Of a stretch of DNA of 64,000 nucleotides, positions 3,915 through 50,256 are shown in pieces (positions within the stretch are counted from its first letter, which is position 1; each line of letters starts with the position of its first letter). The notes below the pieces were generated by a model. The model was given only the letters and a program-made list of their open reading frames with translations. It made no database searches and was not told where the DNA came from. The translations under genes were made by a program, and so were the position numbers. Source of the stretch: an uncultured Eubacteriales bacterium. Its GTDB lineage: Bacteria; Bacillota; Clostridia; Oscillospirales; Oscillospiraceae. Where the stretch lies: assembly GCA_900319275.1 (NCBI GenBank), contig ONNS01000001.1, positions 19,448 through 83,447 on the forward strand. Direction: 5' to 3'.

Positions 3915-4000
3915 GCCGGTGTGATGGAATGGTAGACGTGACGGACTCAAAATCCGTTGGTGGCGACACCGTGTGGGTTCGAGTCCCACCACCGGCACCA
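3915..4000 (+). tRNA. tRNA-Leu (anticodon CAA), class II with long variable arm, encoded CCA
   Basis: Acceptor GCCGGTG/CACCGGC, anticodon stem ACGGA/TCCGT with loop CTCAAAA, T-arm GTGGG-TTCGAGT-CCCAC, long variable arm, terminal CCA. Confidence 0.93.
3975..4000 (+). repeat. attL core (gggttcgagtcccaccaccggcacca)
   Basis: Identical 26-mer recurs at 55125..55150; here it forms the T-arm/acceptor 3' end of the intact tRNA. Confidence 0.9.
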
Positions 4001-4041: not shown

Positions 4042-4127
4042 TTTGCTTTTCAACGGTTTTCGGTATTCAAAAAGCAACTTGCAGATTCAAACAAGAGATG
4101 CAAAAATCAATACTTAGCAAAAGAAAA

Positions 4128-4147
4128 TGCTAACTATTTTGCTAACT
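4128..4147 (+). repeat. pair of TGCTAACT direct repeats (candidate integrase arm-type sites, P' arm)
   Basis: tgctaact at 4128-4135 and 4140-4147 (12-bp phasing); same octamer pair with same phasing at 55056..55075. Confidence 0.5.
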
Positions 4148-4312
4148 ATCCACAAGCACTCTTATATGCCTATTTCTTCAATAATCGTCTTTTCCCTCGC
4201 GCGCCTCCTATATTTCGTGCGATTCTTACAGCATGGACGTATTTTTCTTCCAAAATCGTCCAAATATGACGGAATTGCGGTAGAATTGACCGCAGAGAAG
4301 GAGCGTGCCAAA

Positions 4313-4552
4313 ATGATACGGATTCTCTTGTCTGCCCGTCTCGGCGAAAGACGGTGGACACAAGCGCGGCTTGCACAGGAGACAGGCCTCCGGCCAGCGA
4401 CAATCAATGAGCTTTACAATGAGATGGTTGATTCGATCAGCCTTGAAAAGCTCGACAAGATTTGCCGCGCGCTGAACTGTGACGTTGGAGACATCCTGGT
4501 CGTCGAAACTGATCAGTTAAGGCGTACCCTCGCTGACAAGCCCCGCAAGTAA
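4313..4552 (+). CDS. XRE/Cro-CI family HTH DNA-binding protein
   Basis: AAGGAG RBS then ATG 4313; 79 aa, WTQARLAQETGLRPATINELYN HTH; upstream part of the 4127 ORF looks non-coding. Confidence 0.75.
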   Translation: MIRILLSARLGERRWTQARLAQETGLRPATINELYNEMVDSISLEKLDKICRALNCDVGDILVVETDQLRRTLADKPRK

Positions 4553-6656: not shown

Positions 6657-6693
6657 TCTCTTCCCGCCCCGGAGGTCACGAGGGCAGAAAGGA

Positions 6694-6936
6694 ATGATCA
6701 TGGAAAACCAGAAAGAATTGAAGATCGAAATGCTTTTGAGCGAACGCGGAGGAATGATCCAGTTTCGCCCCCTTGGAATCGGCCATTCCCCGGAAGTGTG
6801 GGAAATCGTCACTGGGAGAAATTTTCCTTATACTTGGAGCGGCTGCTGTTGCGATATGGAGACTACCATTGGAACGATCCGCCAGATCACCGAGAAACTG
6901 CAAAAACTCGGATATAGCCCTGTGTTTGTCCCGTAA
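6694..6936 (+). CDS. hypothetical protein
   Basis: 80-aa ORF with AGAAAGGAA RBS. Confidence 0.5.
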   Translation: MIMENQKELKIEMLLSERGGMIQFRPLGIGHSPEVWEIVTGRNFPYTWSGCCCDMETTIGTIRQITEKLQKLGYSPVFVP

Positions 6937-7011
6937 GCCGAAACGCCCTCCGGGGCGTCCGCCGGAGATCGCCTCCCGGCGCCGATGAAGGCAGGCGAGA
7001 AAGGAGACAAA

Positions 7012-7452
7012 ATGTCACCTATCAGAAATCAATCTGAGTTCCGCAAGGGATATGAATGGCTGTTAATCCTGCAGCAATTGCTCAAGGAGAATGGCTTCGG
7101 AAAGCCAGACGTTGCCCGCGAGGAGATCAACAGCATTAAGCGGGAGCTTCGAGCTTTCGCAAACCGGGACACCGCGGTTGACGTTGGTATGGGCTTTATG
7201 TGTGAGCGCCGGATTGTCAGCAGCGACTTTGACGGCTATATCGAGCTGGTGAGCATTCCGGAAGTGTTCGATACTCTGGACGATGACACGGACGGCAACC
7301 CCGGGGCAAAGACATTTTTTGAGGAGTTCCTTGAGATCCACGCCCGCCCCTCTATGTATGATTGCACAGGGCAAGCCTTTACGAGTTGGTTCAAGCTGTT
7401 CAAGCGCAACGGTCAGTTTTGGGCATACCACAGTGTATGTTTTGACGTGTAA
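7012..7452 (+). CDS. hypothetical protein
   Basis: GAGAAAGGAGA RBS then ATG 7012; 146 aa. Confidence 0.6.
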   Translation: MSPIRNQSEFRKGYEWLLILQQLLKENGFGKPDVAREEINSIKRELRAFANRDTAVDVGMGFMCERRIVSSDFDGYIELVSIPEVFDTLDDDTDGNPGAKTFFEEFLEIHARPSMYDCTGQAFTSWFKLFKRNGQFWAYHSVCFDV

Positions 7453-8031: not shown

Positions 8032-8074
8032 GAGACAGCTGACCTACCGGCTTTACGGGGAGAAAGGAAAAAAG

Positions 8075-8278
8075 ATGCCTGTTTATGATTTTTGCGGCCT
8101 ATGCACTGACGAATCGGTGGATGTCAGTATCTATGACATGAACGAGAAAGTGGAGGAAGAGGTCTTCACCGGAAGTATGAGGGACGCCATGGAAAGCGAG
8201 TGGGCAGACTTCGAGGTTGACAGCTTTGACCTCACCCCGGACGGGCTTTGCTTGAACATTGACACATCGGAGGACTGA
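8075..8278 (+). CDS. hypothetical acidic protein
   Basis: GAGAAAGGAAAAAAG RBS region, 67 aa. Confidence 0.55.
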   Translation: MPVYDFCGLCTDESVDVSIYDMNEKVEEEVFTGSMRDAMESEWADFEVDSFDLTPDGLCLNIDTSED

Positions 8279-8280
8279 GA

Positions 8281-8622
8281 ATGAGCAGAGACTGGACGCC
8301 TGAGGAGACGCGGGCAGCGTCCGAGGCCATGAAGCGCGCTGGGCAGATGAGCTATGAGGAGGTCGTTGCCGAGGCCACCAGGCAAATGATTGAGCAGTTT
8401 TCGGAGATCCAGCGCGAGGGGCATTTTCCCTGTCCACGCTGTGGTCATTACCGTATGAACGCTGATCCCATCCGAAACGCACTGAGCCGCCGGGTGGCTG
8501 TACAGATCTGCGATCAGTGTGGTATTGCAGAGGCCTTGGAAGACGCTATAGGCGAAAGATCGCCGCTGACCATGTGGAATATAGCCCAAGAGCCGGAAGC
8601 CTATAGAAGAGCCAGAAATTAG
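8281..8622 (+). CDS. hypothetical zinc-ribbon protein
   Basis: 113 aa with CPRCG...CDQCG. Confidence 0.6.
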   Translation: MSRDWTPEETRAASEAMKRAGQMSYEEVVAEATRQMIEQFSEIQREGHFPCPRCGHYRMNADPIRNALSRRVAVQICDQCGIAEALEDAIGERSPLTMWNIAQEPEAYRRARN

Positions 8623-8628
8623 GTTGCA

Positions 8629-8688
8629 ACGCAATGTAACGCAATGTAACGCGGTGTCACTTGATATCGCTCTAAGAATCTGATATCG
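8629..8688 (+). repeat. intergenic short direct repeats (acgcaatgta x2 plus degenerate copy; tgatatcg x2)
   Basis: acgcaatgta 8629-8638 and 8639-8648, acgcggtgtc 8649-8658; tgatatcg at 8662-8669 and 8681-8688 (each contains GATATC). Confidence 0.7.
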
Positions 8689-8710
8689 TTACAATCGCAA
8701 AATCCGTATC

Positions 8711-8760
8711 AAGCACCGAAGCATCGCTGTTCGCCGCAGCGGTGCTTCAATTATTTTCGG
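8711..8760 (+). terminator. terminator/attenuator-like hairpin in the leader of the membrane-protein operon
   Basis: aagcaccg (8711-8718) pairs with cggtgctt (8740-8747), followed by caattatttt. Confidence 0.5.
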
Positions 8761-8784
8761 GAGGAGGAAATCATCACGGCATAG

Positions 8785-8825
8785 CTCCTTTGAATACTGC
8801 CGCCGAAAGGCGAGCTTCAAAGGAG
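8785..8825 (+). promoter_or_regulatory. RBS-sequestering hairpin (10-bp perfect inverted repeat with GAAA-capped apical stem)
   Basis: ctcctttgaa 8785-8794 pairs with ttcaaaggag 8816-8825; 3' arm contains the AAGGAG RBS of ATG 8835; apical cgcc-gaaa-ggcg; upstream GGAGGAGG (8759-8768) could compete for the 5' arm. Confidence 0.55.
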
Positions 8826-8834
8826 GGTGTCACA

Positions 8835-9827
8835 ATGACACTGAAACAACGCTTTACCAGCAATCCGCAGATCTACTACGCGCTGAGCATTGCCGCCACA
8901 TGGGCGGGTATCGGCTCTCTGATGAACGGCGTTACCATGACGCTGACCTACGGGATTATCCCGTCGCTGATCTGGGTACTCGGCAACACCGTGGCCTGCA
9001 TCCTTTTCGGAACGGTGGCCTGTAAGATCCCGAAAGTGCGGGAGGTATTCCGGTCAAGGGTAATGGAAACTGTCTGCGCGATCATGTGCATATTCCAGGC
9101 ATGGCTCAGCATGAACGGTATGCAGACGGTTTTCTCTGACACCGTACTCGGACCGGACTTCGGCAAGTATGTGGCCTATGCACTCGCAGTATTCTTCCTG
9201 ATTATCCTGTTGCGCTTCGGCATGATACGAAATGTGCTGACTGACGGCTTCGGCTGGATCATCGTCTATTTGATGGCTGCCGGCGTCACCGCGGCTGCAC
9301 TGATCTACACCAAGGGCACCGTGAATCATATCGGTCTCGGTCTGGAGCCGGAGCCGATGAAAACCGGAATATGGAAAGCGATCTTGCTTCTCCCCGGTCC
9401 TTTCACCTATCCGTACTTCTTTGAGATCCTGGATTACAACGACCGGAACGAGGACGGAACTGCCAAAGTAAACGTAAAGCGAGCCTTTACCATGGGCGGG
9501 GTATTCTTCGGCCTGTATATGGCGATTGTCTTTCCTCTCGCGTGGACGCAGTTCACGCCGACACTCAATATCGTCAAGGCCGTGCTGATCACAATCATCG
9601 GCACATCCACCCTGTCCTCTTCTATGTACAGCATCTATATCGCTTTCGGGAAAAAGCTGGGACTTGCAATCAATACGGCGCTGATCGCCGGATGGAGCAT
9701 TTTGATTCCTCTGGGCGTCATGGGCATGTGGACGCTCATGGCCTCGGTGCGCATCTATTTTGTTGCCGCCGGCATCCTGGTTGCGCTGATCTGGAACGCC
9801 TGCGAGAAAAAGGCGGTGCGGTCATGA
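8835..9827 (+). CDS. polytopic integral membrane protein (transporter-like), family not recognised
   Basis: 330 aa, roughly 9-10 hydrophobic segments; AAGGAGGG RBS; ATGA-coupled to the next gene. Confidence 0.7.
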   Translation: MTLKQRFTSNPQIYYALSIAATWAGIGSLMNGVTMTLTYGIIPSLIWVLGNTVACILFGTVACKIPKVREVFRSRVMETVCAIMCIFQAWLSMNGMQTVFSDTVLGPDFGKYVAYALAVFFLIILLRFGMIRNVLTDGFGWIIVYLMAAGVTAAALIYTKGTVNHIGLGLEPEPMKTGIWKAILLLPGPFTYPYFFEILDYNDRNEDGTAKVNVKRAFTMGGVFFGLYMAIVFPLAWTQFTPTLNIVKAVLITIIGTSTLSSSMYSIYIAFGKKLGLAINTALIAGWSILIPLGVMGMWTLMASVRIYFVAAGILVALIWNACEKKAVRS

Positions 9828-10609
9828 AACAGGTTCTCGGCCGAAAACAGTCCAGCCGAAATGAGGATTGGCTGTATGCTGTGGCGCACATTGAGGAACT
9901 GATCTCCCCGGATGAAGTTAAAGACTACGCCGATGAGTCCCTGTCGGAGATCCGGCGAGCGACGGACGGCAAAAGGGCAGCTTATGCCTACAGCGCAGGT
10001 AAGGACAGTATTGTCCTTGCCAATCTCTGTGAAAAGGCCGGTATCACTACCGGCTATTTTGCTTACTGCGATCTGGATTACCCGGCTTTCGTGGCATGGG
10101 TCAAGGAGCACAAGCCCGCTGGCGTCCAGATGATGCATACCGGATATGGTCTTGATTGGCTGTACCACCATCAGAATCTGATCTTCGCTGAGGGCGCCCT
10201 TGGGCAGAGATGGCATCAAATCAGCCAGCGAGGGCCTTTTACTCAGATGTTCTTCGAGAATCATCTGGATCTCCTGCTCATGGGGCACCGGTCGATTGAC
10301 GGAAATTTCTGTGGCCCTGACGGATATATCCGGAAGAGCAGCGGCGAGGTTCGCTTTTCTCCCCTCCGGGCATGGCCTCACGAAGCCCTGCTTGGCTACA
10401 TCCATTACAACGGCCTTCCACTGCCGCCCATATACGGCTGGAAAGACGGGTGGGTACAGGGGACACACGCCTGGCCGGAGCGAGAGTTCTGCAGCGAGGA
10501 TATCATGAAGGGCTATCGGGAGATCTATGAGATCGACCCGTCCATTGTCCTGGACGCTGCCAAGAAGATTCCGAGCGCGCGCCGCTTCCTGGAGGAGGTG
10601 GGCGCATGA
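9824..10609 (+). CDS. PAPS reductase-like PP-loop ATP pyrophosphatase family protein
   Basis: 261 aa; PP-loop YSAGKDS (SGGKDS-like); ATGA overlaps at both ends. Confidence 0.7.
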   Translation: MKQVLGRKQSSRNEDWLYAVAHIEELISPDEVKDYADESLSEIRRATDGKRAAYAYSAGKDSIVLANLCEKAGITTGYFAYCDLDYPAFVAWVKEHKPAGVQMMHTGYGLDWLYHHQNLIFAEGALGQRWHQISQRGPFTQMFFENHLDLLLMGHRSIDGNFCGPDGYIRKSSGEVRFSPLRAWPHEALLGYIHYNGLPLPPIYGWKDGWVQGTHAWPEREFCSEDIMKGYREIYEIDPSIVLDAAKKIPSARRFLEEVGA

Positions 10610-11292
10610 ACATCACCATGATTCCGCTGTCTGAGCTGAAGCCGAATCCGCGGAACGTGCGCCTCCACTCCGCAAAGCAGTTGGAGGAATATCGGCGCTC
10701 GGTGGAAAAATTCGGCCAGACCAAGGCCATCGTCTGTGACGAGAGCAAAACCATCCTGATCGGCAATGGACTCTATGAGGCCATGAAAGCTCAGGGCATG
10801 ACCGAGGCTGCCTGCTTCATCAAGACCGGAATGTCCGAGAGCGACAAGCTCAAGATGATGATGGCTGACAACAAGGTGTACTCCCTCGGTGTGGACAATC
10901 TGGACACCATCGAGGGAATCATCGCTGAGCTCGGCGCAATGAAAGACTTCGATATCCCCGGCTATGATGCTGATCTTCTGGAAACGCTCACCTTCGAGCC
11001 GGACGATGCGGATGACTTCATGGGTGGCTATGGCCTTTTGGATGATAGCTCAAAGGCCAACATGGAGAAGGCGGCGGCACGGTACGCGCAGGAGGACGCC
11101 AAATTTGAAGCGTCCGCCGAAAGAATTGCCCCGGCGGCCCCTCCACGGCCTCTGGAATCACCGGGAACGGCCCCAGCGCCTCAGACCGATATTGTAACAG
11201 GCCTTCCCGAAAAGCCCGAGGAAACGTCAGGAAATGCGTTGCAACGGCGTTTCCTTGTCTGCCCGAAATGCGGTGAGAAGATATGGCTGTAA
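10606..11292 (+). CDS. ParB N-terminal-domain-like protein with C-terminal zinc ribbon
   Basis: IPLSELKPNPRNVRLHSAKQLEEYRRSVEKFGQ (ParB/Srx box), acidic linker, C-terminal CPKCGEKIW. Confidence 0.7.
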   Translation: MNITMIPLSELKPNPRNVRLHSAKQLEEYRRSVEKFGQTKAIVCDESKTILIGNGLYEAMKAQGMTEAACFIKTGMSESDKLKMMMADNKVYSLGVDNLDTIEGIIAELGAMKDFDIPGYDADLLETLTFEPDDADDFMGGYGLLDDSSKANMEKAAARYAQEDAKFEASAERIAPAAPPRPLESPGTAPAPQTDIVTGLPEKPEETSGNALQRRFLVCPKCGEKIWL

Positions 11293-12446
11293 AACGGGTA
11301 GAGGGAACGATCGACGTCGTGACTGCTGCCCGGCAGCGCCTCACGAATGTGTTTTCCAATGGCGTCCCGGTCTACATGAGCTTTTCCGCAGGCAAAGACA
11401 GCCTGTGCATGGCACATCTGACCTACAGCCTCATCCAGGAGGGGAAGATCGACGCCCAGCAGCTCACGGTGATCTTCATTGACGAGGAGGCCATCTACGA
11501 CAGCATGTATCAGATGGCGATTCGGTGGCGAAAACGGTTCCTCGCCGTCGGCGCTGAATTCCGATGGTATTGCCTGCCGGTGAAGCAATCCAGCATCCTG
11601 AACTACCTGCAGTCCACGGAATCGTGGATTACCTGGGAGCCTGGGAAAGAGGATTGCTGGGTCAGGCAGCCGCCTCCCTTTGCGATCACGCGCAGCCCCT
11701 ATCTCACTTATCCCGGCGAGATGAACTATCAGGAGTTCTGCCAGACGATCTCCCGCGACGGCATCCAGATCGTTGGCCTGCGAGGCTCCGAATCCATCCA
11801 GCGGGCGGCGCTCCTGGCAAAGATTACTCTCGGCAAGGGCGGGATCACCGGGAAGAACTGCCAGTACCCTATCTATGACTGGCGGGATAAAGACATCTGG
11901 CTCTACATCAAGGAGCACAATCTGGACTTCCCGGACGCATACATACATCTGTTTCAGGTCGGAGTGCCAAGGCGGCAGCTCCGGCTTTGCAATTTCTTCG
12001 GCTCCGAGGGTATTGCCGGCCTGCGCTGGATCGCCGAGACAGATCCTCAACTCTGGCAGCAGGTGGAGAAGCGCGAGCCGAACGCCTATCTCACTCTCCT
12101 GTACTGGGACAGTGAGATGTTCAAGCGCCGGACCAGGAAGCGCCGGGAGCTGGAGGGCAGCGCCCCTCTGAAAGACTACAAGGCAGAGTGTAAGAAGATG
12201 CTCTTCACCGAGGCCGACAAGTATTTCAGCATAGCCAGCATGAAAACGGTACATCGGGCATACCGGGCGTTCTACATCCGGAACAGCGCCGTGATGACCA
12301 ATGAGCATTTCCGCATCATGCACGATGCTATCATAGCCGGCGATCCGAAGCTCCGGTCCCTCCGGGCACTCTACACGACGGTCTACAAGGAGTATGCAGA
12401 CCTCAGCCGTGCAACTTCCCTGAAGAAGGGAGGTGAACAGGCATGA
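11283..12446 (+). CDS. PAPS reductase-like protein with C-terminal extension (IbrA-like)
   Basis: 387 aa; PP-loop FSAGKDSLCMAH; large C-terminal domain as in IbrA/DUF3440-type proteins (recollection). Confidence 0.7.
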   Translation: MAVKRVEGTIDVVTAARQRLTNVFSNGVPVYMSFSAGKDSLCMAHLTYSLIQEGKIDAQQLTVIFIDEEAIYDSMYQMAIRWRKRFLAVGAEFRWYCLPVKQSSILNYLQSTESWITWEPGKEDCWVRQPPPFAITRSPYLTYPGEMNYQEFCQTISRDGIQIVGLRGSESIQRAALLAKITLGKGGITGKNCQYPIYDWRDKDIWLYIKEHNLDFPDAYIHLFQVGVPRRQLRLCNFFGSEGIAGLRWIAETDPQLWQQVEKREPNAYLTLLYWDSEMFKRRTRKRRELEGSAPLKDYKAECKKMLFTEADKYFSIASMKTVHRAYRAFYIRNSAVMTNEHFRIMHDAIIAGDPKLRSLRALYTTVYKEYADLSRATSLKKGGEQA

Positions 12447-12967
12447 CAGAGGTTGATGTGTTCGGCCCGCTTGCCTCCCTGCAGTGGGTGGATCGCTCGA
12501 TGCTCCACGCAAATGACTACAACCCGAACAAGGTCTCAGAAGAAAACCTGCAGCTGCTGGTGCAGTCGATACTCACGAACGGCTGGACGCTGCCCATCGT
12601 GGTACGGCCAGACTATACGATCATCGACGGCTTTCACCGCTGGACGGTATCCGGACGGGAGCCGCTGTTGTCCAAACTCGGCGGCAAGGTGCCCGTGGTG
12701 ATCGTCAACCATGAGAACGAGGCCGATGATATCTATGGCACCATCACGCACAACCGTGCGCGCGGTACTCACCTGCTGGAGCCGATGAAGGCTATCGTGA
12801 AACGGCTGATCGACGAGGGGAAGACCGTGCAGGAGATCTCCAAGCAGCTCGGCATGAGGCCGGAAGAGATCTTCCGCCTCTCTGATTTCTCCCGTGATGA
12901 ATTTCTCGCCATGATGACGGATGGCGTCACCGGGTATTCCCGCGCTGCCATCTACAAGAGTGTATAA
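12443..12967 (+). CDS. ParB-like nuclease domain protein (IbrB-like)
   Basis: 174 aa; NDYNPNKVSEENLQLLVQSI and IIDGFHRW motif; ATGA overlap with previous gene. Confidence 0.72.
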   Translation: MTEVDVFGPLASLQWVDRSMLHANDYNPNKVSEENLQLLVQSILTNGWTLPIVVRPDYTIIDGFHRWTVSGREPLLSKLGGKVPVVIVNHENEADDIYGTITHNRARGTHLLEPMKAIVKRLIDEGKTVQEISKQLGMRPEEIFRLSDFSRDEFLAMMTDGVTGYSRAAIYKSV

Positions 12968-13113
12968 ACCGAACAAGGGCGCTGGGGAGACCGAGAACGG
13001 CTTCCCTTGCGCCTTTCTGCTTAACCAACGTGGAATATGCCCTGCACCAGAGAACGCAAGGCAGACCCGTTGCAACTGCTCTCAGTGGCAATCCAAGTAA
13101 ATGAGGTGGTGAT

Positions 13114-13710
13114 GTGGCTGAGAAAGCGAATGCTCCGAACTGGAAGAAGATCAAAGCAGAATACCTCCGCGGCGGTACGTCTTACGGAAAGCTCGCCCAG
13201 AAATACGGTATCCCCAAGACCACGATAGCGAGCAAGGCAAAGCGTGAGGGCTGGGGCGAACTGCAGCAGGAAATTTCGGACGAAACTCGTACAAAAGTCG
13301 TACAGAAAATAGCCGAAAAAGAATCCGACCTTCTGGCCGAGCTCACAGATATGCAGGCAAAGGCAGCCCGCGGCCTATACAAGAAGATGCTCAGTGATAT
13401 CAGCGAGTATCCGAACGGTGCCGGTACCCGAATCGTGCGCGAGACGGTGAAGGTCAAAGAGATCGAGCTTGACGGCGGCGTGAAAAAGAAGATCCCGCTG
13501 AGATCATCCATCACAACCGATTTTGAATCTCTTGTGCGGGCGCTGGCCACACTCGGAAAACTGTACGGCCTTGACGCCGGATCAATTCTGGCTAAGGAAC
13601 GGATTGATCTGCAATACAATTCTCACGAGGATGAAGAGCCAGAAGACGACGGATTCCTTGAGGCGCTGAGCGGTACTGCTGCGGAGGACTGGGCGGATGA
13701 AGAAGGGTAA
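13114..13710 (+). CDS. terS: terminase small subunit
   Basis: 198 aa; N-terminal HTH (IKAEYLRGGTSYGKLAQKYGIPKTTIASKAKREGW), acidic tail, directly upstream of and overlapping terL. Confidence 0.8.
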   Translation: MAEKANAPNWKKIKAEYLRGGTSYGKLAQKYGIPKTTIASKAKREGWGELQQEISDETRTKVVQKIAEKESDLLAELTDMQAKAARGLYKKMLSDISEYPNGAGTRIVRETVKVKEIELDGGVKKKIPLRSSITTDFESLVRALATLGKLYGLDAGSILAKERIDLQYNSHEDEEPEDDGFLEALSGTAAEDWADEEG

Positions 13711-14971
13711 GCCTGTATTCAAGTTCAAGCCGTTCAGCAAGAAGCAGCGAAAAGTCCTGAACTGGTGGACGCCTGGAAGCCCGGTCAGAGATGCGGACGG
13801 CATCATTGCGGATGGCGCGATAAGAAGCGGCAAGACGCTTTCCATGTCCCTGTCCTTCGTCCTATGGGCAATGTCCACGTTCAATGGGGAGAGCTTTGCC
13901 ATGTGCGGGAAAACCGTCGGCAGTTTCCGCCGCAACGTTCTCTTTTGGCTTAAAATTATGCTCTATGGGCGAGGGTACCACTGCGAGGAAAAGCGCAGTG
14001 ATAACCTTGTCATCATATCCCGGGGCTCGGTCGAGAATTATTTCTATATCTTCGGTGGCAAGGACGAGAGAAGTCAGGACCTGATTCAAGGTATTACGCT
14101 CGCAGGCGTATTTCTGGACGAAGTTGCACTCATGCCGGAGAGTTTTGTCAACCAAGCAACAGGACGCTGCAGTGTTGACGGTTCGACGATGTGGTTCAAC
14201 TGCAATCCGGAATATCCGTCGCATTGGTTCAAAGTGAACTGGATCGACAAGGCCAAGGAAAAGGGCCTGCTGTATCTCCATTTCACAATGGATGATAACC
14301 TGAGCCTTTCCGAGCGTGTCAAAGAAAGATACAAGCGCATGTATACCGGCGTCTGGTATGAGCGCTTTATCCTCGGCCTCTGGGTGCTTGCCCAGGGGCT
14401 TGTTTTCTCCATGTTCCAGGAGGCGATAGGAGATGCGCCGGAGGGAGAAGCGGAGAAATACTGCCTTTCCATCGACTATGGTACTCAGAACGCCTTTGCC
14501 GCGCTCCTTTGGGGAAAATACGGCGACGTATGGTGGGCAATCCGTGAGTATTACTATTCCGGGCGGGACACCGGCGTACAGAAAACGGATGAAGAATATG
14601 CTGCTGATCTGGACAGCACCTTTGCGGATATAACGCCGGGGCGGGCCATCGAGACGATCATTGACCCGTCTGCAGCGTCTTTCATTGCCCTGCTGCGCAA
14701 GCGCAATGGTAGGTACAAGGTCATCCCGGCAGACAATGCTGTACTTGATGGCATCCGAGAGACGGCCACGGCCCTGAAGACTGGGAAAATCAAGATCAGC
14801 CGCCTTTTGACCGCGTGGCGCAAAGAGGCCGAGGGCTATGTCTGGGACGAAAAAGAGAAAGAGGACAAACCAGTCAAGGTCAATGACCATGCCATGGACG
14901 CAACTCGTTATTTCGTTAAGACAAAGCGAATCTGTATGGTCAAGCGAAAATACACATCTATTTTGAGATGA
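13697..14971 (+). CDS. terL: terminase large subunit
   Basis: 424 aa; Walker A-like ADGAIRSGKT, Walker B VFLDEV, C-terminal nuclease region with DHAMDATRY. Confidence 0.88.
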   Translation: MKKGKPVFKFKPFSKKQRKVLNWWTPGSPVRDADGIIADGAIRSGKTLSMSLSFVLWAMSTFNGESFAMCGKTVGSFRRNVLFWLKIMLYGRGYHCEEKRSDNLVIISRGSVENYFYIFGGKDERSQDLIQGITLAGVFLDEVALMPESFVNQATGRCSVDGSTMWFNCNPEYPSHWFKVNWIDKAKEKGLLYLHFTMDDNLSLSERVKERYKRMYTGVWYERFILGLWVLAQGLVFSMFQEAIGDAPEGEAEKYCLSIDYGTQNAFAALLWGKYGDVWWAIREYYYSGRDTGVQKTDEEYAADLDSTFADITPGRAIETIIDPSAASFIALLRKRNGRYKVIPADNAVLDGIRETATALKTGKIKISRLLTAWRKEAEGYVWDEKEKEDKPVKVNDHAMDATRYFVKTKRICMVKRKYTSILR

Positions 14972-38969: not shown

Positions 38970-39773
38970 TCAAAAGATTTTCATCTGACCGGCAGGCTCG
39001 AAGTTCATCCAAAGAACCTCCCGGCGCTTGGCTGCGGTTTGTGCTCGCACGTCGATCTCCTCACGGTGCCAGTTTTTCAGTGCCTCTCGGTACAGCGGGC
39101 TTTCATATCCTGATAGAAGAACGGGACCGCGGTGCTGCTTGAGTGCATCGAGCAGATCAGCGTGATCGGCATCAGTCATTTCACAAGCGTATTGCTTTCC
39201 GTGCCTGGTACCGAGGAGATACGGCGGGTCTGCGTAGATCAGCACGTTCGGAAAGTTGAACCGGGTGATTACCTCGAGCGCCGGGCGATTCTCGATCTGG
39301 ACCCCGCGCAGCCGTTCCGCGGCCTCTATGATGCGCTGGGGAGTATCACACCATCCCTTGGCAGCATAGGCCGCTTCCCGGCCCTGCACATCGTTTTTCC
39401 AGCCGACCTTGATCTCGTTCGTCCTGAAGCCATGCCCCATCATCAGCTTTGTGCAGAAGACGACGGCTCGTTCAAAACTGCCATTGACACCGGCCTTGTA
39501 TGCATCAATCGCTCGGTCATAGACCTCCCGTGAGTAAGGCGTCCAGTAGATGGCATCGGCCAGACGTTCTGGATCTCGCTTGATCCAGTCGAACAGGTTC
39601 ACCACGTCGCCGTCAAGATCGTTCACCGTTTCGATCGGACTTCGGCTCTTGGTGAACAGCACAGCGCCTGAGCCGAAGAACGGCTCCAGGTAGCTATGGT
39701 GCTGTGGAAAGAAATCGATGATCCACTGTGCAATATTCCACTTTGAGCCAGGGTATTTGACGATAGCGTTCAC
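38970..39773 (-). CDS. dam: DNA N6-adenine methyltransferase (Dam/D12 class), no cognate endonuclease seen
   Basis: KYPGSKW, EPFFGSGAV (motif I) and IYADPPY (motif IV); GTG start forming a GTGA overlap with the upstream stop. Confidence 0.85.
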   Translation of the reverse strand: MNAIVKYPGSKWNIAQWIIDFFPQHHSYLEPFFGSGAVLFTKSRSPIETVNDLDGDVVNLFDWIKRDPERLADAIYWTPYSREVYDRAIDAYKAGVNGSFERAVVFCTKLMMGHGFRTNEIKVGWKNDVQGREAAYAAKGWCDTPQRIIEAAERLRGVQIENRPALEVITRFNFPNVLIYADPPYLLGTRHGKQYACEMTDADHADLLDALKQHRGPVLLSGYESPLYREALKNWHREEIDVRAQTAAKRREVLWMNFEPAGQMKIF

Positions 39774-40081
39774 GGCCTCCCATCCTTGTCCTTTTGAAGA
39801 GCCTGCTCTGCAAGTGCCTGCATAGGCGGAGAAGAAAACAGATCGGCAATCGCTCGCAAGCACTGCCCCATAGCGAAAGCCAGTTCTCTCAACGCGCCTC
39901 CAAGGTTTCGGATTTGCTTCATGCTGCCCTGTATGGCTCGTTCCATCCTCATGGAGTCGTAGTATTTCTGGTACGACCGATCACCGCGCAGATAGTCCGC
40001 CCGAAGAACAGCAGCGTCTCGGCTATAGCCCTCGCTCATAAGGAGCTTGATGAATCTCTTCCTGGTCATGGCATCGATCAC
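39770..40081 (-). CDS. hypothetical protein
   Basis: 103-aa ORF (GTG 40081, or ATG 40069). Confidence 0.5.
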   Translation of the reverse strand: MIDAMTRKRFIKLLMSEGYSRDAAVLRADYLRGDRSYQKYYDSMRMERAIQGSMKQIRNLGGALRELAFAMGQCLRAIADLFSSPPMQALAEQALQKDKDGRP

Positions 40082-40251
40082 TTCCCTTTCTTTGAGATCA
40101 GGTACCGGAAGAGAAAATAGGCCGAGCCTTTCATCCCACAGTTCTCACACTGCTTCTTGAGCGCCGTCGTGGCATTGGTGACCTTCTTGACAGAATAACC
40201 TGACTTCATCGTGTCGGCGCACGTCGGGCATAGGGTAACAATCTTATTCAT
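40078..40251 (-). CDS. small zinc-ribbon protein
   Basis: 57 aa from ATG 40251: CPTC...CENCG; start embedded in an ATGAATAA junction. Confidence 0.5.
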   Translation of the reverse strand: MNKIVTLCPTCADTMKSGYSVKKVTNATTALKKQCENCGMKGSAYFLFRYLISKKGK

Positions 40252-40534
40252 TCTGCAGATCCTCCTCCCAGGGGAATATCCCGTCGAAGTCTCGACAGAA
40301 ATAGTTTGGCGCCGTATAGCAGACGGCGTTCTTGTTGGAGTGCTTTTCGCACATACCACGGTCATCCTCTTTGAACCAGTAGGCGCAGCACCGGCAGCAC
40401 GGGCCGAGCTCGTCATCTTCATCCCATTTCCTGACCAAGACAATCAGGGTAACGGTTAGAGCTACGGCGATAATCAGACAGACCGCCAGTGATATGTTGC
40501 CGGGGGATGATAAAGCTTGCATGATCTTATTCAT
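40244..40534 (-). CDS. small membrane-anchored Cys-rich protein
   Basis: GGAGGAAG RBS, ATG 40534; 96 aa; TM (ISLAVCLIIAVALTVTLIVLV) then CCRCC...C...C. Confidence 0.55.
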   Translation of the reverse strand: MNKIMQALSSPGNISLAVCLIIAVALTVTLIVLVRKWDEDDELGPCCRCCAYWFKEDDRGMCEKHSNKNAVCYTAPNYFCRDFDGIFPWEEDLQNE

Positions 40535-40724
40535 TGGTTGCTTCCTCCTGTTCCTGATCTTTACGCGGAATGATCTTTCTCCGCAGGCCGTCGCGGCATA
40601 AAACAAGCGGCAATTCTTTCCGCCTTTCGTTCTCAGCATCGTCAAAGCCGCAGCGAGAGCAAAAACCTATCGTACTGCAGCCGCCAGCCAGACAGTTCGT
40701 CGGCGGCATTATGCGTTTGCTCAT
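40527..40724 (-). CDS. small Cys-rich protein
   Basis: 65-aa ORF, C..C...CSRCG; second ATGAATAA junction with the downstream gene. Confidence 0.45.
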   Translation of the reverse strand: MSKRIMPPTNCLAGGCSTIGFCSRCGFDDAENERRKELPLVLCRDGLRRKIIPRKDQEQEEATNE

Positions 40725-40733
40725 GTAGTCCTC

Positions 40734-41012
40734 CTATAAGTAATTTTTACCGAACTCCCTGTGCCAGTCCTCCATGGTCCAGCCGTTTTCCTCCATGGCT
40801 TTGCGCTGGGCCCATTGCTTGAGCATCAGGGCAGTTTCCTCGCATTTGTGGGCAGATTTTTTTCCCAGGCGGTGGCAGCGATTTCCGCACAGGGGAACGA
40901 CAAGCCCGTACCTTTCCGATTTCTCCCGGAGAGAACCGGGGAATACATGGTGAATCTCCAATGCATCCCCGTTCCCGTTCCGTCCGCAGAGAAAGCACCT
41001 CTGCTCGTCCAT
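40734..41012 (-). CDS. HNH-motif small nuclease-like protein
   Basis: 92 aa from ATG 41012: CFLCGRNGNGDALEIHHVFPG...CGNRCH. Confidence 0.55.
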   Translation of the reverse strand: MDEQRCFLCGRNGNGDALEIHHVFPGSLREKSERYGLVVPLCGNRCHRLGKKSAHKCEETALMLKQWAQRKAMEENGWTMEDWHREFGKNYL

Positions 41013-41017
41013 GCTGA

Positions 41018-41260
41018 CTACCTCTTTCGATGCTGCCGGGCATTCGGGCAGGTGGCGAAGTGAGACATACGGGCTTTCCCGGTCGGCGGCCCGGTAAAGG
41101 TGAGATCGCAGCGGACGGCATCGCCCCAGTCTGTGATCAGGATCTGCTTTCCGTTTGGATTTGCCTTGTACGGGATCAGCCCCGCATTGCAGGGCATTGA
41201 CTTTCCGGCTTTTGTGCGCAGCCATACAATCGGTGCGCCGCAGGATCTGCAGGTGTCCAT
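41018..41260 (-). CDS. small zinc-ribbon protein
   Basis: 80 aa from ATG 41260 (CRSCGAPIVW...); GAAGGAGGG RBS inside the upstream gene end. Confidence 0.5.
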   Translation of the reverse strand: MDTCRSCGAPIVWLRTKAGKSMPCNAGLIPYKANPNGKQILITDWGDAVRCDLTFTGPPTGKARMSHFATCPNARQHRKR

Positions 41261-41261
41261 G

Positions 41262-42674
41262 TTAATTGCCCTCCTTCTTGTAGAACAGATTGTGCGTACC
41301 GCCGCGCAGCTCCACTTCCTCGGTGCTGCTGACATAGCCAAGACTACCCAGGAGGCGGTAAACCATATCCAGGTCGGGGTCTTCGCTGTAGACGATATGC
41401 CACTGGCTTTCCTCGGCGTCCCATGTTTCACGCCAGTATTTACCCGTGTCGAGGATCCACATTGCGGTAATCAGCGCCGTCCGCTCCGGATGCTGCATTT
41501 TGGCAGAAAGGAACTCCGCGTAATCCAGTTTTTTGGGGCCGCTGCCTTCCTGCATTTTTACACCGAGCATAGCAGCCAGCTCCGTGATGCTCGCATTGTT
41601 GGAATAACCACCGCCGTTCTGCTTCGCGTCGATCATGGCCTCTGTGACGAACTCCAATACGTTCACGTCACGCTTCTGGTACTGATTGAAGTTTTTGACA
41701 AAATCAAGGCGAAGTTTTCTGTGCCGCTCGGTCATTTCTGTGAACTGCCCTTTGAGTTTCTGATAGGCATCCGCACGAATTTTGTCCTCGATTTGCTTTC
41801 GCTCCGCCTCGGGATTTCGCTTCCACTTTTTGTAGAGGGTGATTTCCGTTTCTTTCTGTACGAAGAAATACTCCTCGGCGCCGTCGTCCTCAGGCTTGAT
41901 GGCGTCCTTGCCCTTGTCTCCATATTTGCTATAGTTGGTGACATACTCTACAGGGAAAGTCCGATCACCGATAAATCCGGTTTTCTGGCTGCCCTGCCAT
42001 TCAACCTTGTCAATCTTTGTGGCAAAGGCAGAAACCTGTCCGGCCCATTTGTCGAGCAGAGCCTTGGTCTTCTGATTTTCAATTGCGGCTGAGAGGGCGT
42101 TTTTCCAGTCCTTTGTTCCCAGTTTCCCAAGCAGATCGTCTTTGACGGCCGGATCGTCGATCTTGTCCATCTCGGCAAAATCGAAGAGGGTAGCACCGCG
42201 CTCCACGGCCTTCTTGAATTTCTTCTCGTCCAGTTCGGCGAGCTTTACGCGGCGCCTGACGGTGGCCTCGGAGAAGCCGGACATTGCCGATACATCCTGT
42301 ATCGTTTTTCCGAGATCCAGCATCATCTGGAAGCCCTTGGCCTCCTCATAGATGGACAGGTCAGACCGCTGCATATTCTCTACAAGCATGGTGGCAATCT
42401 GGTCCTCATAGCTCATGTCCACGATGGTGCAGGGCAGTTCTGTGAGCCCGGCCAGCTTCGCCGCACTTGCCCGCCGGTGGCCAATCAGGATGGTATACAG
42501 GCCGTCCATCACACGCTTATGCACCTTCGAGTAATAGGGAACGACCGTCAGATTTTGAAGGACGCCTTTGGCCTTGATGCTCTCTGCCAGCTCGGACAGA
42601 TCGCCGAGCTCTTTTCTGGGATTGTCCGGGTGAGGATTGAGTTTATCAATCGGGATCATCACAATGTCGGCCAT
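41262..42674 (-). CDS. ParB/Srx N-terminal-domain protein with large C-terminal domain
   Basis: 470 aa; IPIDKLNPHPDNPRKELGDLSELAESIKAKGVLQNL, ILIGHRRASAAKLAG, HTH region QDVSAMSGFSEATVRRRV. Confidence 0.8.
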   Translation of the reverse strand: MADIVMIPIDKLNPHPDNPRKELGDLSELAESIKAKGVLQNLTVVPYYSKVHKRVMDGLYTILIGHRRASAAKLAGLTELPCTIVDMSYEDQIATMLVENMQRSDLSIYEEAKGFQMMLDLGKTIQDVSAMSGFSEATVRRRVKLAELDEKKFKKAVERGATLFDFAEMDKIDDPAVKDDLLGKLGTKDWKNALSAAIENQKTKALLDKWAGQVSAFATKIDKVEWQGSQKTGFIGDRTFPVEYVTNYSKYGDKGKDAIKPEDDGAEEYFFVQKETEITLYKKWKRNPEAERKQIEDKIRADAYQKLKGQFTEMTERHRKLRLDFVKNFNQYQKRDVNVLEFVTEAMIDAKQNGGGYSNNASITELAAMLGVKMQEGSGPKKLDYAEFLSAKMQHPERTALITAMWILDTGKYWRETWDAEESQWHIVYSEDPDLDMVYRLLGSLGYVSSTEEVELRGGTHNLFYKKEGN

Positions 42675-42677
42675 GGC

Positions 42678-43355
42678 TTAATCCTCCGGAACGTCATAGG
42701 GAAGCACCTCACGCGGCTCAGCACCGCGATAGGGGCCAACCACACCGCGCTCTTCCAGCATATCCATAAGCCGCGCGGCCTTGGAATAGCCGAGGTTCAG
42801 ACGGCGCTGCAGCAGGCTCACAGTCGCTTTGTTTTCCTGCCTGACCAGGAGCGTGGACGCGGTGATCAGATCCTCGTCGGGATCGCTGCCGTCGCTCGCC
42901 GGATAATCCTCGCTGCCCTCGTCCGATTCATCCGGCTCGAAATCCTCATCCCCGCTGTCGTCGGCCTCAGCTTCATCGATGACGGGCATGGATCCGCTGG
43001 AGAGACCGCGATTGACCATTTCCCGGAAGAAATACAGGAGCCAGTAATCGCACATCTTCGAATAGATGTTTACGAACTTGCTCTGCAGAGCCTTGCTGAT
43101 CGTAAAGGTTCCGTTGAACTTCGTCTTGACGTCCTCGCCGTCCTTGCGGTAGATAACCATGGATGCGTCCGGCGAGATGTAGTCATTCTGCTCAGCGTCC
43201 GCGAGAAGCGAAAGCTGCTCGGTCACGCCCTGAATGGGACGGACGGTCATCGTGATCGGATAGCTCTTGTTGCGGAAGCGATAGGTCAGATCGTGCTCTT
43301 TGCAGAGGTCATCCAGTTTCTTTTTCTGGGCCTCATACTTGCTGATTTCACTCAT
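42678..43355 (-). CDS. protein with C-terminal FtsK-gamma-like winged helix
   Basis: 225 aa; acidic linker; C-terminal KATVSLLQRRLNLGYSKAARLMDMLEERGVVGPYRGAEPREVL matches the FtsK gamma pattern. Confidence 0.6.
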   Translation of the reverse strand: MSEISKYEAQKKKLDDLCKEHDLTYRFRNKSYPITMTVRPIQGVTEQLSLLADAEQNDYISPDASMVIYRKDGEDVKTKFNGTFTISKALQSKFVNIYSKMCDYWLLYFFREMVNRGLSSGSMPVIDEAEADDSGDEDFEPDESDEGSEDYPASDGSDPDEDLITASTLLVRQENKATVSLLQRRLNLGYSKAARLMDMLEERGVVGPYRGAEPREVLPYDVPED

Positions 43356-43367
43356 AGTTTTCTCCTT

Positions 43368-43637
43368 TCAGTTCTGATCTGCCAGCGTCACAATACGTTC
43401 GCAGATGTTTGAGTGCAGATACTCGCGGAAAGCCTCCATGGTTTCCTCCATACAATCAAGACGAATCTTGTCGAGAACAACGTCTTCGGACAAATCAAAA
43501 TATTCGATGAAGAAGGATTCAAACGAATCAATCAATTCTTCGACATTCTCCATCCCCTCAATTCTTTTCCTCTGATCATCGGAGAGCATTTCCTTAGAGT
43601 ACTTTCCGGTGTCCACCAATTGTGTAAATCTGCTCAT
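43368..43637 (-). CDS. hypothetical protein
   Basis: 89-aa ORF in operon. Confidence 0.5.
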   Translation of the reverse strand: MSRFTQLVDTGKYSKEMLSDDQRKRIEGMENVEELIDSFESFFIEYFDLSEDVVLDKIRLDCMEETMEAFREYLHSNICERIVTLADQN

Positions 43638-43647
43638 ATATCTCCTT

Positions 43648-44178
43648 TTATTCCAGTATCAGGAGCAGATCGTTCCATGACGTCTGAACCTGATATTTCT
43701 TCAATTGCTCTTCGGTCACATACTTGTGGCCGAAGATTCTTTTCATGTCGGCCCACGCCGACCAGGGGATGCGGTAGACGCTACCTGACTTATAACCGGC
43801 GAGGACATAGCATCGGGCACCGAGCGCCGACGCCTTCGTCATATAGTCTGCCTGCACATCGCTCACCCTGTCCTGCTCGATCCGGTCGCTCGTGGTGTGT
43901 TTGGCTTCAAAGATCACCGATCGCCCGCCCTTGACGGTGCCCTTGTAATCCGGCTGCGCCTTTTTGAGAAAGCAGCCGATGAAGCGGGTATGCTCCAGGC
44001 GCTTGATGATTTTGAACGGTTCCGGCGTCTTGTCGATCAGGGCAAAGCCGCGCTCCGCGTAATAGGCAAAGCTGCGGTCAAGCCGGTCCTCAAAGGCTTT
44101 TCCCTCGGCCCTGTTCTTCCAGCCCCGGATCAGATTCTCTGGCTTCGGCTGAGGCAGCGGCGGCAATTTATCCAGCAT
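43648..44178 (-). CDS. recU: RecU-like Holliday junction resolvase
   Basis: GAGGAGGAA RBS then ATG 44178; 176 aa; PDYKGTVKGGRSVIFEAKHT matches the RecU catalytic D..E.K region. Confidence 0.72.
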   Translation of the reverse strand: MLDKLPPLPQPKPENLIRGWKNRAEGKAFEDRLDRSFAYYAERGFALIDKTPEPFKIIKRLEHTRFIGCFLKKAQPDYKGTVKGGRSVIFEAKHTTSDRIEQDRVSDVQADYMTKASALGARCYVLAGYKSGSVYRIPWSAWADMKRIFGHKYVTEEQLKKYQVQTSWNDLLLILE

Positions 44179-44189
44179 TTGATTCCTCC

Positions 44190-45131
44190 TCAAAAGAACA
44201 TGAGCTGTCCGTATTTGTTTTCGTTGTAGGCCGTTTCCTCGGCTTCCACGGGTGGTTCCGGCTCGGGGGATATAGTTACAGGGGGTGTGGGGTCCTCGGG
44301 CTCTGGAAGCGGTTGCAACGGGGCAGCAGCGGCCTCGGCGGGCAGCTCCTCGGCTTTCTCTGTCGTAGGGAGCTTGCTGAAGAGCAGCGCCATTGATGCA
44401 GCCAGCCGCCGGATGTGCCATTCTTCCCGGAAATAGAACGGCGTGTACCAGATGTTTCCGTCGCCGCATGGGATCAGGCCGCGGGGATCGTGGAATGTGG
44501 TTGGATTTGCGAGGCTGTCACCGATCTTCACATATCCCGCACAGCCGAGGATGCTCAGCTGCAGGTAGCACATACACCCGACGAGGTAATCGATGTCCTG
44601 GGCAACGAACAGCACCGAAGTCTGGTAGTTGATATCCTTCCTCAGACAGTCATTGGCGAAAGCAACCAGGAGCGCCCCCGCGCCGCAGGCCGGGTCCAGC
44701 ACGGAGACGAAGCCCTTTTGCTCAATCTCGGCCTTGAGTAGATCGAAGTTTGAAACGATCTCGCTCATGCAGCGGCATACATCGTATGGGGTGAAGAACT
44801 GCCCGGCGTGCTCGTTGCCCATCCCGACAGCCATGTACATTTCCCCAAGGAAATCCTGATCGGGATTTCTGTCCATGGCATTGACGAAATCCACGAACAG
44901 CTCAGAGAAAACGAGCAGCTCCTGCGGCTGGTATTTGCTGGCCAGCGTCCTGTAGTGCTTCTCCCTCTCCGTGGCGTGAACCTGATCGACGACGTTGGAG
45001 ATACTGATCGCAGACATGACCACCCAGTCCTCCCAGATTTGCCGGATGGAATACCGCCCGGACAAGGACTCAAACTTTTTGATAAATTCTGCCTGGACGC
45101 CGGTTCTGACGGCGCGTGCTGCCTTTCCCAT
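44190..45131 (-). CDS. N6-adenine methyltransferase-like protein lacking a recognisable (D/N/S)PP(Y/F/W) motif
   Basis: 313 aa; GQFFTPYDVCRCM and LDPACGAGALLV (motif I) present, no PPY/PPF/PPW anywhere; Pro/Glu-rich C-terminal tail. Confidence 0.6.
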   Translation of the reverse strand: MGKAARAVRTGVQAEFIKKFESLSGRYSIRQIWEDWVVMSAISISNVVDQVHATEREKHYRTLASKYQPQELLVFSELFVDFVNAMDRNPDQDFLGEMYMAVGMGNEHAGQFFTPYDVCRCMSEIVSNFDLLKAEIEQKGFVSVLDPACGAGALLVAFANDCLRKDINYQTSVLFVAQDIDYLVGCMCYLQLSILGCAGYVKIGDSLANPTTFHDPRGLIPCGDGNIWYTPFYFREEWHIRRLAASMALLFSKLPTTEKAEELPAEAAAAPLQPLPEPEDPTPPVTISPEPEPPVEAEETAYNENKYGQLMFF

Positions 45132-45172
45132 ATCCCGCGCCTCCTATATCTGTGCGAGATTGTGCAGATGCT

Positions 45173-47278: not shown

Positions 47279-47291
47279 AGGCTACCTCCGA

Positions 47292-49252: not shown

Positions 49253-49255
49253 GCT

Positions 49256-50209: not shown

Positions 50210-50256
50210 AATGGGGTGCTCCTTTCAATTTGTGCTCGATATGAGCGTATTTATGG

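Follow-up and report, generated by a model that had tools for sequence, protein, structure and literature searches.

Why should a membrane protein, two PP-loop enzymes and two ParB-like proteins be encoded side by side just before the terminase genes of a phage, and what might they do there? The question is raised by a prophage in a 64,000-nucleotide stretch of contig ONNS01000001.1 (assembly GCA_900319275.1, from an uncultured Eubacteriales bacterium of the Oscillospiraceae), the whole of which is referred to below as the window. Five co-directional, overlapping open reading frames (ORFs) on the forward strand, designated g1 to g5, span positions 8835-12967, where an earlier note on this DNA had placed them, and terS and terL follow directly after g5, as the note had also said; the gap between g5 and terS is 146 nt, and a terminator scan found no terminator-like site in it. 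The ATGA overlaps that had been described for all five genes are present at g1/g2, g2/g3 and g4/g5, whereas g3 and g4 overlap by 10 nt. We found that this module is the head of the late operon in temperate phages of rumen and gut Oscillospiraceae and Clostridia, that its core is a trio of genes already widespread in phages but uncharacterised, and that the membrane protein is a new part of it. As for function, we tentatively favour ParB-guided, ATP-dependent covalent modification of phage DNA around packaging, with use of a metabolite imported by g1, a reading that is possible rather than probable.

The module and its membrane protein

Relatives of g1 were collected from IMG/VR and GTDB, which gave about 120 viral and metagenome-assembled genome (MAG) loci. 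Of the 116 phage-type loci with enough sequence downstream of g1, 114 continue with (g2)-g3-g4-g5, as g1-g2-g3-g4-g5 in 58 and as g1-g3-g4-g5 in 56, and the other two have g1-g2 only; g2 is present in about half of the loci. Three further loci, which were not counted, were scored as g1-g4-g5, perhaps through artefacts of ORF assignment, and the remaining ones are truncated contigs. P0227-type homologues of g1 (approximately 23% identity) likewise lie upstream of (g2)-g3-g4-g5, as does the g1 homologue of a P0160-type locus (L153); single-protein scans with P0160, P0212 and P0242 retrieved no viral loci. The five-gene arrangement is far beyond chance. Because synteny holds even at approximately 23% identity, and in essentially every phage locus examined, g1 belongs to the module and is not the unrelated, non-syntenic moron that had been considered beforehand as the opposite outcome. 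One large clade from the gut and rumen couples its IbrA-like enzyme (g4) obligately to g1, behind a structured leader.

The module loci have as hosts Oscillospiraceae and other Clostridia of the rumen and gut, represented by MAGs; among public runs, the exact sequence was found only in Logan contigs of bovine gut metagenomes. Metatranscriptome contigs cover the operon in patches at a depth of 1-5, with DNA possibly included. Among cultured phages, the Faecalibacterium phage FP_Taranis has the form without g2, flanked by a RinA-like activator and terS; no mention of these four genes is made in the FP_Taranis paper.

No match to the g1 sequence was obtained in Pfam, PHROGs, NCBIfam, PADLOC or a PDB profile search, nor did nine distant homologues match Pfam, although the family itself is large: 984 relatives were retrieved from a collection of 5.8 billion proteins, forming approximately 180 clusters at 50% identity. 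An AlphaFold2 model of g1 (pLDDT 75.7, pTM 0.73) has ten transmembrane (TM) helices, and a Foldseek search of the PDB with this model returned significant matches exclusively to proteins of the LeuT fold or APC superfamily, namely CHT1/SLC5A7, Nramp, ApcT, AdiC and CodB, the best being CHT1/SLC5A7 (E 3e-4, TMq 0.60), with TMq about 0.6 also to CodB and AdiC. In BFVD the model matched an uncharacterised member of a gut-virome family (TM-score 0.79), followed by viral amino-acid transporters. The earlier description of the protein as transporter-like thus agrees with what the structure search returned. The model predicts a core of 5+5 inverted-repeat TM helices in which TM1 is broken at residues 24-25 and TM6 at residues 185-192, and invariant motifs of the family fall at these breaks, ATWAG/IGS in TM1 and LL/PGPFTY/PYFF (LLPGPFTYPYFF) in TM6. 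In LeuT-fold proteins the broken segments of TM1 and TM6 are the location of the substrate site. Distant family members (21-30% identity) contain the motif GPxxDxQxWQRA, which we take to resemble the D..QR motif of the SSS family. On this model, g1 is predicted to be a minimal 10-TM LeuT-fold secondary transporter.

The family is also found in cells. A P0160-type member (L147) lies in a polysaccharide-biosynthesis cluster, and in three loci (L149:5973-12993, L151:6001-11970 and L152:4804-12493) the gene recurs in an operon of the order (Peptidase_S66)/membrane protein/HisZ-like (a HisRS paralogue)/PanC-like (pantoate ligase)/PurD-like/HisS. These contexts support a transporter, yet they are inconsistent with one another, so that no substrate can be assigned from them.

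The trio, its enzymes and its ParB-like proteins

The two PP-loop/ParB pairs had been taken for a tandem duplication fused to a transporter-like gene. All five genes are separate ORFs, and a recent duplication is ruled out, as BLASTP hardly aligns g2 with g4 (E 0.1) or g3 with g5 (E 1.9); by these values, g2, g3, g4 and g5 are four different families. The g3-type ParB, the IbrA-like enzyme (g4) and the IbrB-like protein (g5) form the core, a widespread trio found in phages of Actinobacteria, Bacilli and Clostridia, with orthology checked by profile search (E values from 1e-14 to 2e-8 for the g3 type, 1e-35 to 1e-49 for the g4 type and 1e-33 to 1e-39 for the g5 type). Arthrobacter phage LiSara has the trio as gp5-gp6-gp7 (gp5 being the g3 orthologue), followed in order by a small methyltransferase, TerS and TerL; Bacillus phage 022DV001 has gp78 (the g3 orthologue), gp79, a methyltransferase and gp83 at the end of its linear record; Mycobacterium phage GlenHope has gp1 (the g3 orthologue), gp4 and gp5, and then the terminase. 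Two class-I S-adenosylmethionine (SAM) methyltransferase-like proteins, LiSara gp8 (L160:5559-6137) and 022DV001 gp80 (L158:4594-5145), are homologous and share ARRVFPEIY...IILEGR. The trio is reduced or rearranged in Flavobacterium FCL-2 and Microcystis Mwe-JY13.

Many of these clusters lie before the terminase, though not all of them, and this bears on the proposal that the module is an accessory of packaging, in which the ParB-like proteins would recognise or nick DNA near pac or cos and help the terminase, as HNH proteins do in cos phages, with the PP-loop enzymes as auxiliaries. The frequent annotation of the family as ParB-like nuclease would agree with such a role, as would the place of the module just upstream of terS and terL here, before the terminase in GlenHope and LiSara, and between terL and the portal gene in FCL-2; but a separate TerS is present here, the variable position is at odds with it, and the transporter and both PP-loop enzymes would be left unexplained. 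We regard this role as very improbable.

Both g2 (PF01507, 1.3e-6; phrog_424, 4e-12) and g4 (PF01507, 6.8e-11; phrog_2302, 8e-81) belong to the PP-loop enzymes, and they differ greatly in distribution: g4 homologues occur in 216 of 50,697 phage records, with hosts including Flavobacterium, Mycobacterium, Streptococcus, Arthrobacter and Bacillus, whereas g2 had one match in the same records. Alignments of 59-121 family members show the PP-loop SxGKDS to be invariant in both. The same alignments contain one invariant cysteine in g4 (C97) and none in g2, with neither the C-terminal catalytic cysteine of the CysH type (ECGLH) nor a three- or four-cysteine iron-sulfur (Fe-S) set in either protein, which makes DndC-type and CysH-type chemistry unlikely. 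ATP-pyrophosphatase (adenylating) chemistry appears well supported at the level of sequence, and the reduction of 3'-phosphoadenosine 5'-phosphosulfate (PAPS) and Fe-S sulfur transfer of the DndC or TtuA type are not supported.

Genes of the trio are usually annotated as 'co-activator', 'ParB-like nuclease' or cysH-type auxiliary metabolic gene (AMG), and in the virome literature phage 'PAPS reductases' are commonly read as AMGs of sulfur metabolism (bioRxiv 10.64898/2026.02.18.706556). The Pfam PAPS_reduct matches of g2 and g4 would agree with cysH- or cysD-like sulfur assimilation. Membership in these families was nevertheless rejected, with 19 bits against a cut-off of 254 for TIGR02057 (CysH) and 29 against 195 for NF003587 (CysD); the cysteines named above are missing, no other sulfur genes were seen in the module, and the enzymes are obligately coupled to ParB-like proteins. 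A role in sulfur assimilation is hardly credible.

The model of g4 (pLDDT 81) is approximately equally close to NcsA, APS/PAPS reductase, FAD synthase, TilS, CysD, TtuA and LarE, and its helical C-terminal domain was unmatched in the structure search. With NcsA, TilS and TtuA among the top matches, the PP-loop enzymes might modify bases of host or phage tRNA with an imported amine or sulfur source and so retune the translation of late genes, and an APC-type transporter would fit the amino-acid co-substrate of TilS-type chemistry. Searches of Pfam and NCBIfam detected no PUA, THUMP or TilS C-terminal RNA-binding domains, however, the partners are ParB and helix-turn-helix (HTH) proteins, and the Fe-S cysteines of TtuA/NcsA-type thiolation are lacking, all of which makes tRNA modification improbable.

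Of the two ParB-like proteins, g3 has no Pfam match, but matches the ParB-like family phrog_620 (3e-38), and its ParB-N domain is of the type found in ParB-methyltransferase fusions (phrog_498, 2e-21; PADLOC MTase_II, 2e-9), to which g5 is also similar (phrog_498, 1e-14). The g3 protein had been described as ParB-N with a zinc ribbon; the ParB-N part stands, and of the ribbon there is half at most, since the invariant C-terminal CPxCGexIxL of the family alignment holds a single CxxC. The g5 protein matches PF02195 (6e-7) and phrog_2159 (8e-69) as well as ParB structures in the PDB, with an HTH present and a weak match to 1vk1. It is the most conserved gene of the module, being 77-79% identical to relatives whose g1 is at most 44% identical. 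In the alignments, the GERRxRA arginine patch of partition ParB is found in neither protein, g3 having GNGLYEA and g5 DGFHRWT in its place, and the genes called in the module and directly beside it include no ParA-type partner.

Another rival is a small-molecule or anti-defence pathway, in which an imported precursor would be converted to a nucleotide-linked metabolite by PP-loop adenylyl-transferases (similar to CysD or FAD synthase) together with ParB/Srx phosphotransferases (similar to sulfiredoxin, SerK or SbnI), the product aiding infection or neutralising a host immune signal. The g4 model fits the tRNA enzymes no better than FAD synthase, CysD and APS/PAPS reductase, g5 has the DGxHR motif of the Srx/SerK type in addition to its weak match to 1vk1, an NAD(P)-Rossmann-like gene lies between g1 and g2 in two loci (see below), and cellular relatives of g1 lie beside ligase-type metabolic genes. 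This pathway would not account for the HTH of g5, for a ParB-N domain in g3 of the kind found with DNA methyltransferases, or for the trio adjoining the terminase in phages without any transporter, and we consider it rather unlikely.

Leader RNA and possible function

The region between the preceding gene and g1 contains three tandem repeats, a promoter-like site, an intrinsic-terminator-like hairpin and a leader in which the Shine-Dalgarno (SD) sequence of g1 may be masked by pairing (Table 1). The repeats are probable activator sites. Immediately upstream of the promoter, positions 8281-8622 of the forward strand encode a 113-aa protein with the zinc-finger motifs CPRCG...CDQCG, the C-terminal coding sequence of which is conserved in several relatives and which has a weak FmdB-like match (phrog_1076, 1e-4); this protein may be a late activator that acts on the 10-bp repeats.

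The leader of the window folds with a minimum free energy of -56.9 kcal/mol (z -4.5). The layout is kept in divergent relatives, in which three 10-bp-spaced repeats of different sequence occupy the same place, and in aligned relatives both arms of the terminator stem have changed with the hairpin kept. Most relatives possess a longer leader of two or three helices with the conserved loops UUUCUCCUUUG and UCGCCA (examples are L069:5874-6000, L056:431-557 and L001:4349-4485). Across 37 sequences of this longer form, 82% of cells pair and both-sided changes occur in 19 of 19 pairs, with a covariation score of 0.457 against 0.208 in shuffles and at most 0.133 in slid controls. A covariance model detected 58 copies in 1.1 Mb, all on the forward strand and all but one reaching the start of g1, the exception (L074) being a partial match that ends about 120 nt upstream of g1; the model matched neither the window, the leader of which is the short variant, nor the distant clades of g1, the cellular loci or the phages that carry IbrAB only. 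Searches of Rfam at permissive thresholds with the window and two longer relatives gave nothing relevant, the sole match being a sub-threshold 'sar' over the terminator hairpin, and identity with a known riboswitch was rejected, as no Rfam family matches. We regard the promoter, terminator and leader unit as a candidate new cis-regulatory RNA. The module heads the late operon under this putative promoter, terminator and SD-masking leader, which a ligand, an antiterminator or a protein of the module itself may open.

Table 1. Positions of the module, its upstream region and the adjoining terminase genes in the window
Feature	Position	Strand	Description
Direct repeats	8628-8657	+	three tandem 10-bp repeats (AACGCAATGT twice, AACGCGGTGT), read from the sequence, just upstream of the -35
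Promoter-like site	8661-8689	+	TTGATA-17-(TG)TATCGT; consensus scan; position conserved in relatives
Intrinsic-terminator-like hairpin	8718-8758	+	13-bp hairpin with U-rich tail, between promoter and g1
Leader	8759-8834	+	GGGAGGAGGA (8759-8768); anti-SD GCUCCUUUGAA (8784-8794) pairing with g1 SD UUCAAAGGAGGG (8816-8827)
g1	8835-9827	+	330 aa; predicted 10-TM LeuT-fold (APC-superfamily, SSS-like) secondary transporter
g2	9824-10609	+	261 aa; YSAGKDS; divergent PP-loop ATP pyrophosphatase (PAPS_reduct family); optional member
g3	10606-11292	+	228 aa; ParB-N domain, variable acidic/proline-rich linker, C-terminal end CPKCGEKIWL (RRFLVCPKCGEKIWL)
g4	11283-12446	+	387 aa; FSAGKDS; IbrA-like PP-loop ATP pyrophosphatase, C-terminal helical domain
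g5	12443-12967	+	174 aa; IbrB-like ParB/Srx-type N domain (IIDGFHRWTV, THNRARGTH) and HTH
TerS	13114-13710	+	phrog_1206, 1e-10
TerL	13697-14971	+	Terminase_6N

Such an upstream region calls to mind the main rival to DNA modification, namely that the g4/g5 pair co-activates prophage or late transcription, acting on late promoter or terminator DNA, on RNA polymerase or as a ParB-like sliding clamp, with the transporter and the extra enzymes supplying or sensing a metabolite. The two proteins are homologues of IbrA and IbrB, a family annotated as co-activator of prophage gene expression; expression from behind the promoter, terminator and structured leader demands read-through or unmasking; the pair lies beside antirepressor or early genes in phages of Escherichia coli and Streptococcus thermophilus; and a conserved host target would agree with how little g5 varies. 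However, the genes of the module lie downstream of the very terminator that would have to be overcome, a pure regulator would hardly be expected to come with a transporter and two conserved ATP-pyrophosphatase active sites, and methyltransferase, glycosyltransferase and dehydrogenase companions point to chemistry. A purely regulatory role is in our view unlikely, though to be taken seriously.

The favoured reading, modification of phage DNA, draws on the ParB-N domains of DNA-methyltransferase type in g3 and g5 and the HTH of g5, on the methyltransferase companions that recur in other phages and the location beside the terminase, and on pathway-like accessory genes together with the obligate coupling of transporter and trio. 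Among these accessory genes, an NAD(P)-Rossmann-like gene of 280-289 aa, with weak Pfam matches, lies between g1 and g2 in two divergent loci (L122:7990-8832 and L153:4244-5113), and a glucosyltransferase-like gene (phrog_854, 3e-8) between g2 and g3 in another (L034:7818-8639), as expected for a modification pathway of several steps; a further variant has an HNH endonuclease insertion (L093:9761-10192). In the scheme that we propose, the ParB-like proteins would bind phage DNA, loading in an NTP-dependent manner like other ParB/Srx proteins, and would position or activate one or both PP-loop enzymes, which would spend ATP (releasing AMP and PPi) on adenylating an oxygen on the DNA or on a precursor. 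A nucleophile from the metabolite imported by the transporter late in infection would then replace the adenylated oxygen, so that the DNA would be marked just before or during packaging, probably for escape from host restriction. In this scheme we infer that DNA is the target, that the imported compound is a co-substrate, how the chemistry proceeds and that the phage benefits by evading restriction.

Several points weigh against this scheme. The fold of g4 does not separate PP-loop enzymes acting on DNA, tRNA and small molecules. A search of positions 8200-14000, covering the module and its vicinity, for parS-like or pac-like repeats returned short, chance-level repeats only. So strongly conserved a protein as g5 is easier to reconcile with a universal partner than with DNA sites particular to a phage. 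The cellular relatives of g1 sit in unrelated contexts, from which the substrate of the transporter is not deducible. In S. thermophilus phage CHPC1230 and E. coli phage PhiR5_2 the IbrAB pair is not beside the terminase, but near lysis or antirepressor genes. Finally, IbrAB of E. coli is said to activate the expression of prophage eib (Sandt and colleagues, in 2002), which is a regulatory phenotype and reportedly the only genetic evidence for the family.

A bolder form of the DNA-modification reading would see here a transporter-fed, self-contained DNA hypermodification of a chemically new kind, with a LeuT-fold importer, two PP-loop enzymes guided by two ParB/Srx proteins and a leader acting as riboswitch-like sensor of the same metabolite, the simpler trio of hundreds of phages being at the heart of a class of DNA-modifying enzymes that is widespread and so far overlooked. 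This we consider doubtful.

Whatever the case, an answer would give a new annotation to a gene that is very common in viromes. Few genes are annotated in phage and virome studies as often as 'PAPS reductase', usually as a sulfur AMG or 'co-activator', and we found in the literature no biochemical study of a phage 'PAPS reductase' and, in full texts, no functional study of phage IbrAB, of PAPS-reductase plus ParB modules or of the trio. Assignment of the IbrA-like enzyme to a conserved trio, together with two ParB-like proteins of different families, replaces a vague annotation by a hypothesis that can be tested, for which cultivable phages carrying the module or the trio exist (FP_Taranis, LiSara and the B1 mycobacteriophages). 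Should the product be a new DNA modification, it would bear on phage-defence biology, on errors in the nanopore and enzymatic handling of virome DNA and on enzyme discovery; should it be regulatory, the old IbrAB phenotype would be explained.

Prophage surroundings and closest known systems

Elsewhere in the window, a tRNA gene (3915-3997, forward strand, 57 bits) lies where the G+C content falls from 59-65% to about 48-55%, probably the attachment site and left boundary of the prophage, and is followed by a Cro/C1-type HTH protein at 4127-4552. A match to the type II hammerhead ribozyme (RF02276, 45 bits against a gathering score of 37) occupies positions 6936-7000 of the forward strand, in the intergenic gap before an early-region ORF (6985-7452), and a metatranscriptome contig aligns exactly over 6936-7005. 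Two intergenic elements of approximately 35 nt (6662-6697 and 8037-8072, forward strand), each ending in GAAAGGAA just before a start codon, recur in many metatranscriptome contigs with unrelated flanks, at a depth of up to approximately 300 at 6662-6697 and approximately 2-5 per contig at 8037-8072; they look like short conserved 5' leader or ribosome-binding-site elements. On the minus strand, opposite to that of the late genes, a block of the replication type (38970-50400), which may be the same phage inverted or a second element, includes a replisome organizer, SSB and NinB, a DNA methyltransferase (38970-39863; phrog_56, 3e-71) and a third ParB-like protein, of 470 aa (41262-42674; phrog_6218, 2e-69), similar to FP_Taranis gp25.

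Among characterised systems, DndB/DndC and SspD/BrxP likewise combine a PAPS-reductase-family ATP pyrophosphatase with a ParB/DGxHR-type protein, and links of the module to DndC/DndB and BREX type 4 had been drawn. A close kinship is not supported: matches to DndC and BrxP are weak and sub-threshold. DndC membership was rejected at 14.9 bits against a cut-off of 290 for TIGR03183, with no [4Fe-4S] or persulfide cysteines, and the BrxP component of BREX type 4 was rejected on a partial PADLOC match of 26 bits confined to the PP-loop core. The module differs further in that it has no conserved Fe-S or catalytic cysteine set and no DndA/D/E, SspA-C, PglZ, BrxC or BrxL genes, the extra genes of its variants being Rossmann-like, glucosyltransferase-like or HNH only.

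With the LeuT-fold transporters, of which SSS/SLC5, Nramp, APC and NCS1 are closest, g1 shares the predicted 5+5 core and the broken TM1 and TM6, but it differs in its small size, in having no sequence match to any transporter in Pfam, NCBIfam or the PDB and in belonging to a mostly phage-borne family. Fusions of ParB-N with a DNA methyltransferase (phrog_498; PADLOC MTase_II) have N-terminal domains that g3 and g5 match, and are likewise near packaging genes, whereas in the module ParB-N stands as a protein of its own, next to a PP-loop ATPase instead of a methyltransferase.

The kinship with IbrA and IbrB (phrog_2302 and phrog_2159), the 'immunoglobulin-binding regulator' pair of E. coli, annotated in SEED as 'co-activators of prophage gene expression', is borne out for g4 and g5, which are respectively 31% (E 4e-31) and 38% (E 1e-28) identical by BLASTP to the IbrA and IbrB of Escherichia phage PhiR5_2 and share with the pair the order of the PP-loop and ParB genes and the overlap of their ORFs. 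DUF3440 is present in IbrA of PhiR5_2 (5e-33) and CHPC1230 (2e-52), but was not found in g4, in the C-terminal 143 aa of g4, in Taranis gp37 or in GlenHope gp4, and the BLAST alignment of g4 with the IbrA of PhiR5_2 covers only the first approximately 48 residues of this domain. The pair differs here also in its surroundings, as it lies behind a putative late promoter and terminator along with a g3-type ParB, a second PP-loop enzyme and the predicted transporter. Closest in composition are the trio clusters of the actinobacteriophages and the Bacillus phage, which consist of the same three families with no membrane protein and no g2, and in LiSara and 022DV001 the place of these two is taken by the small SAM methyltransferase.

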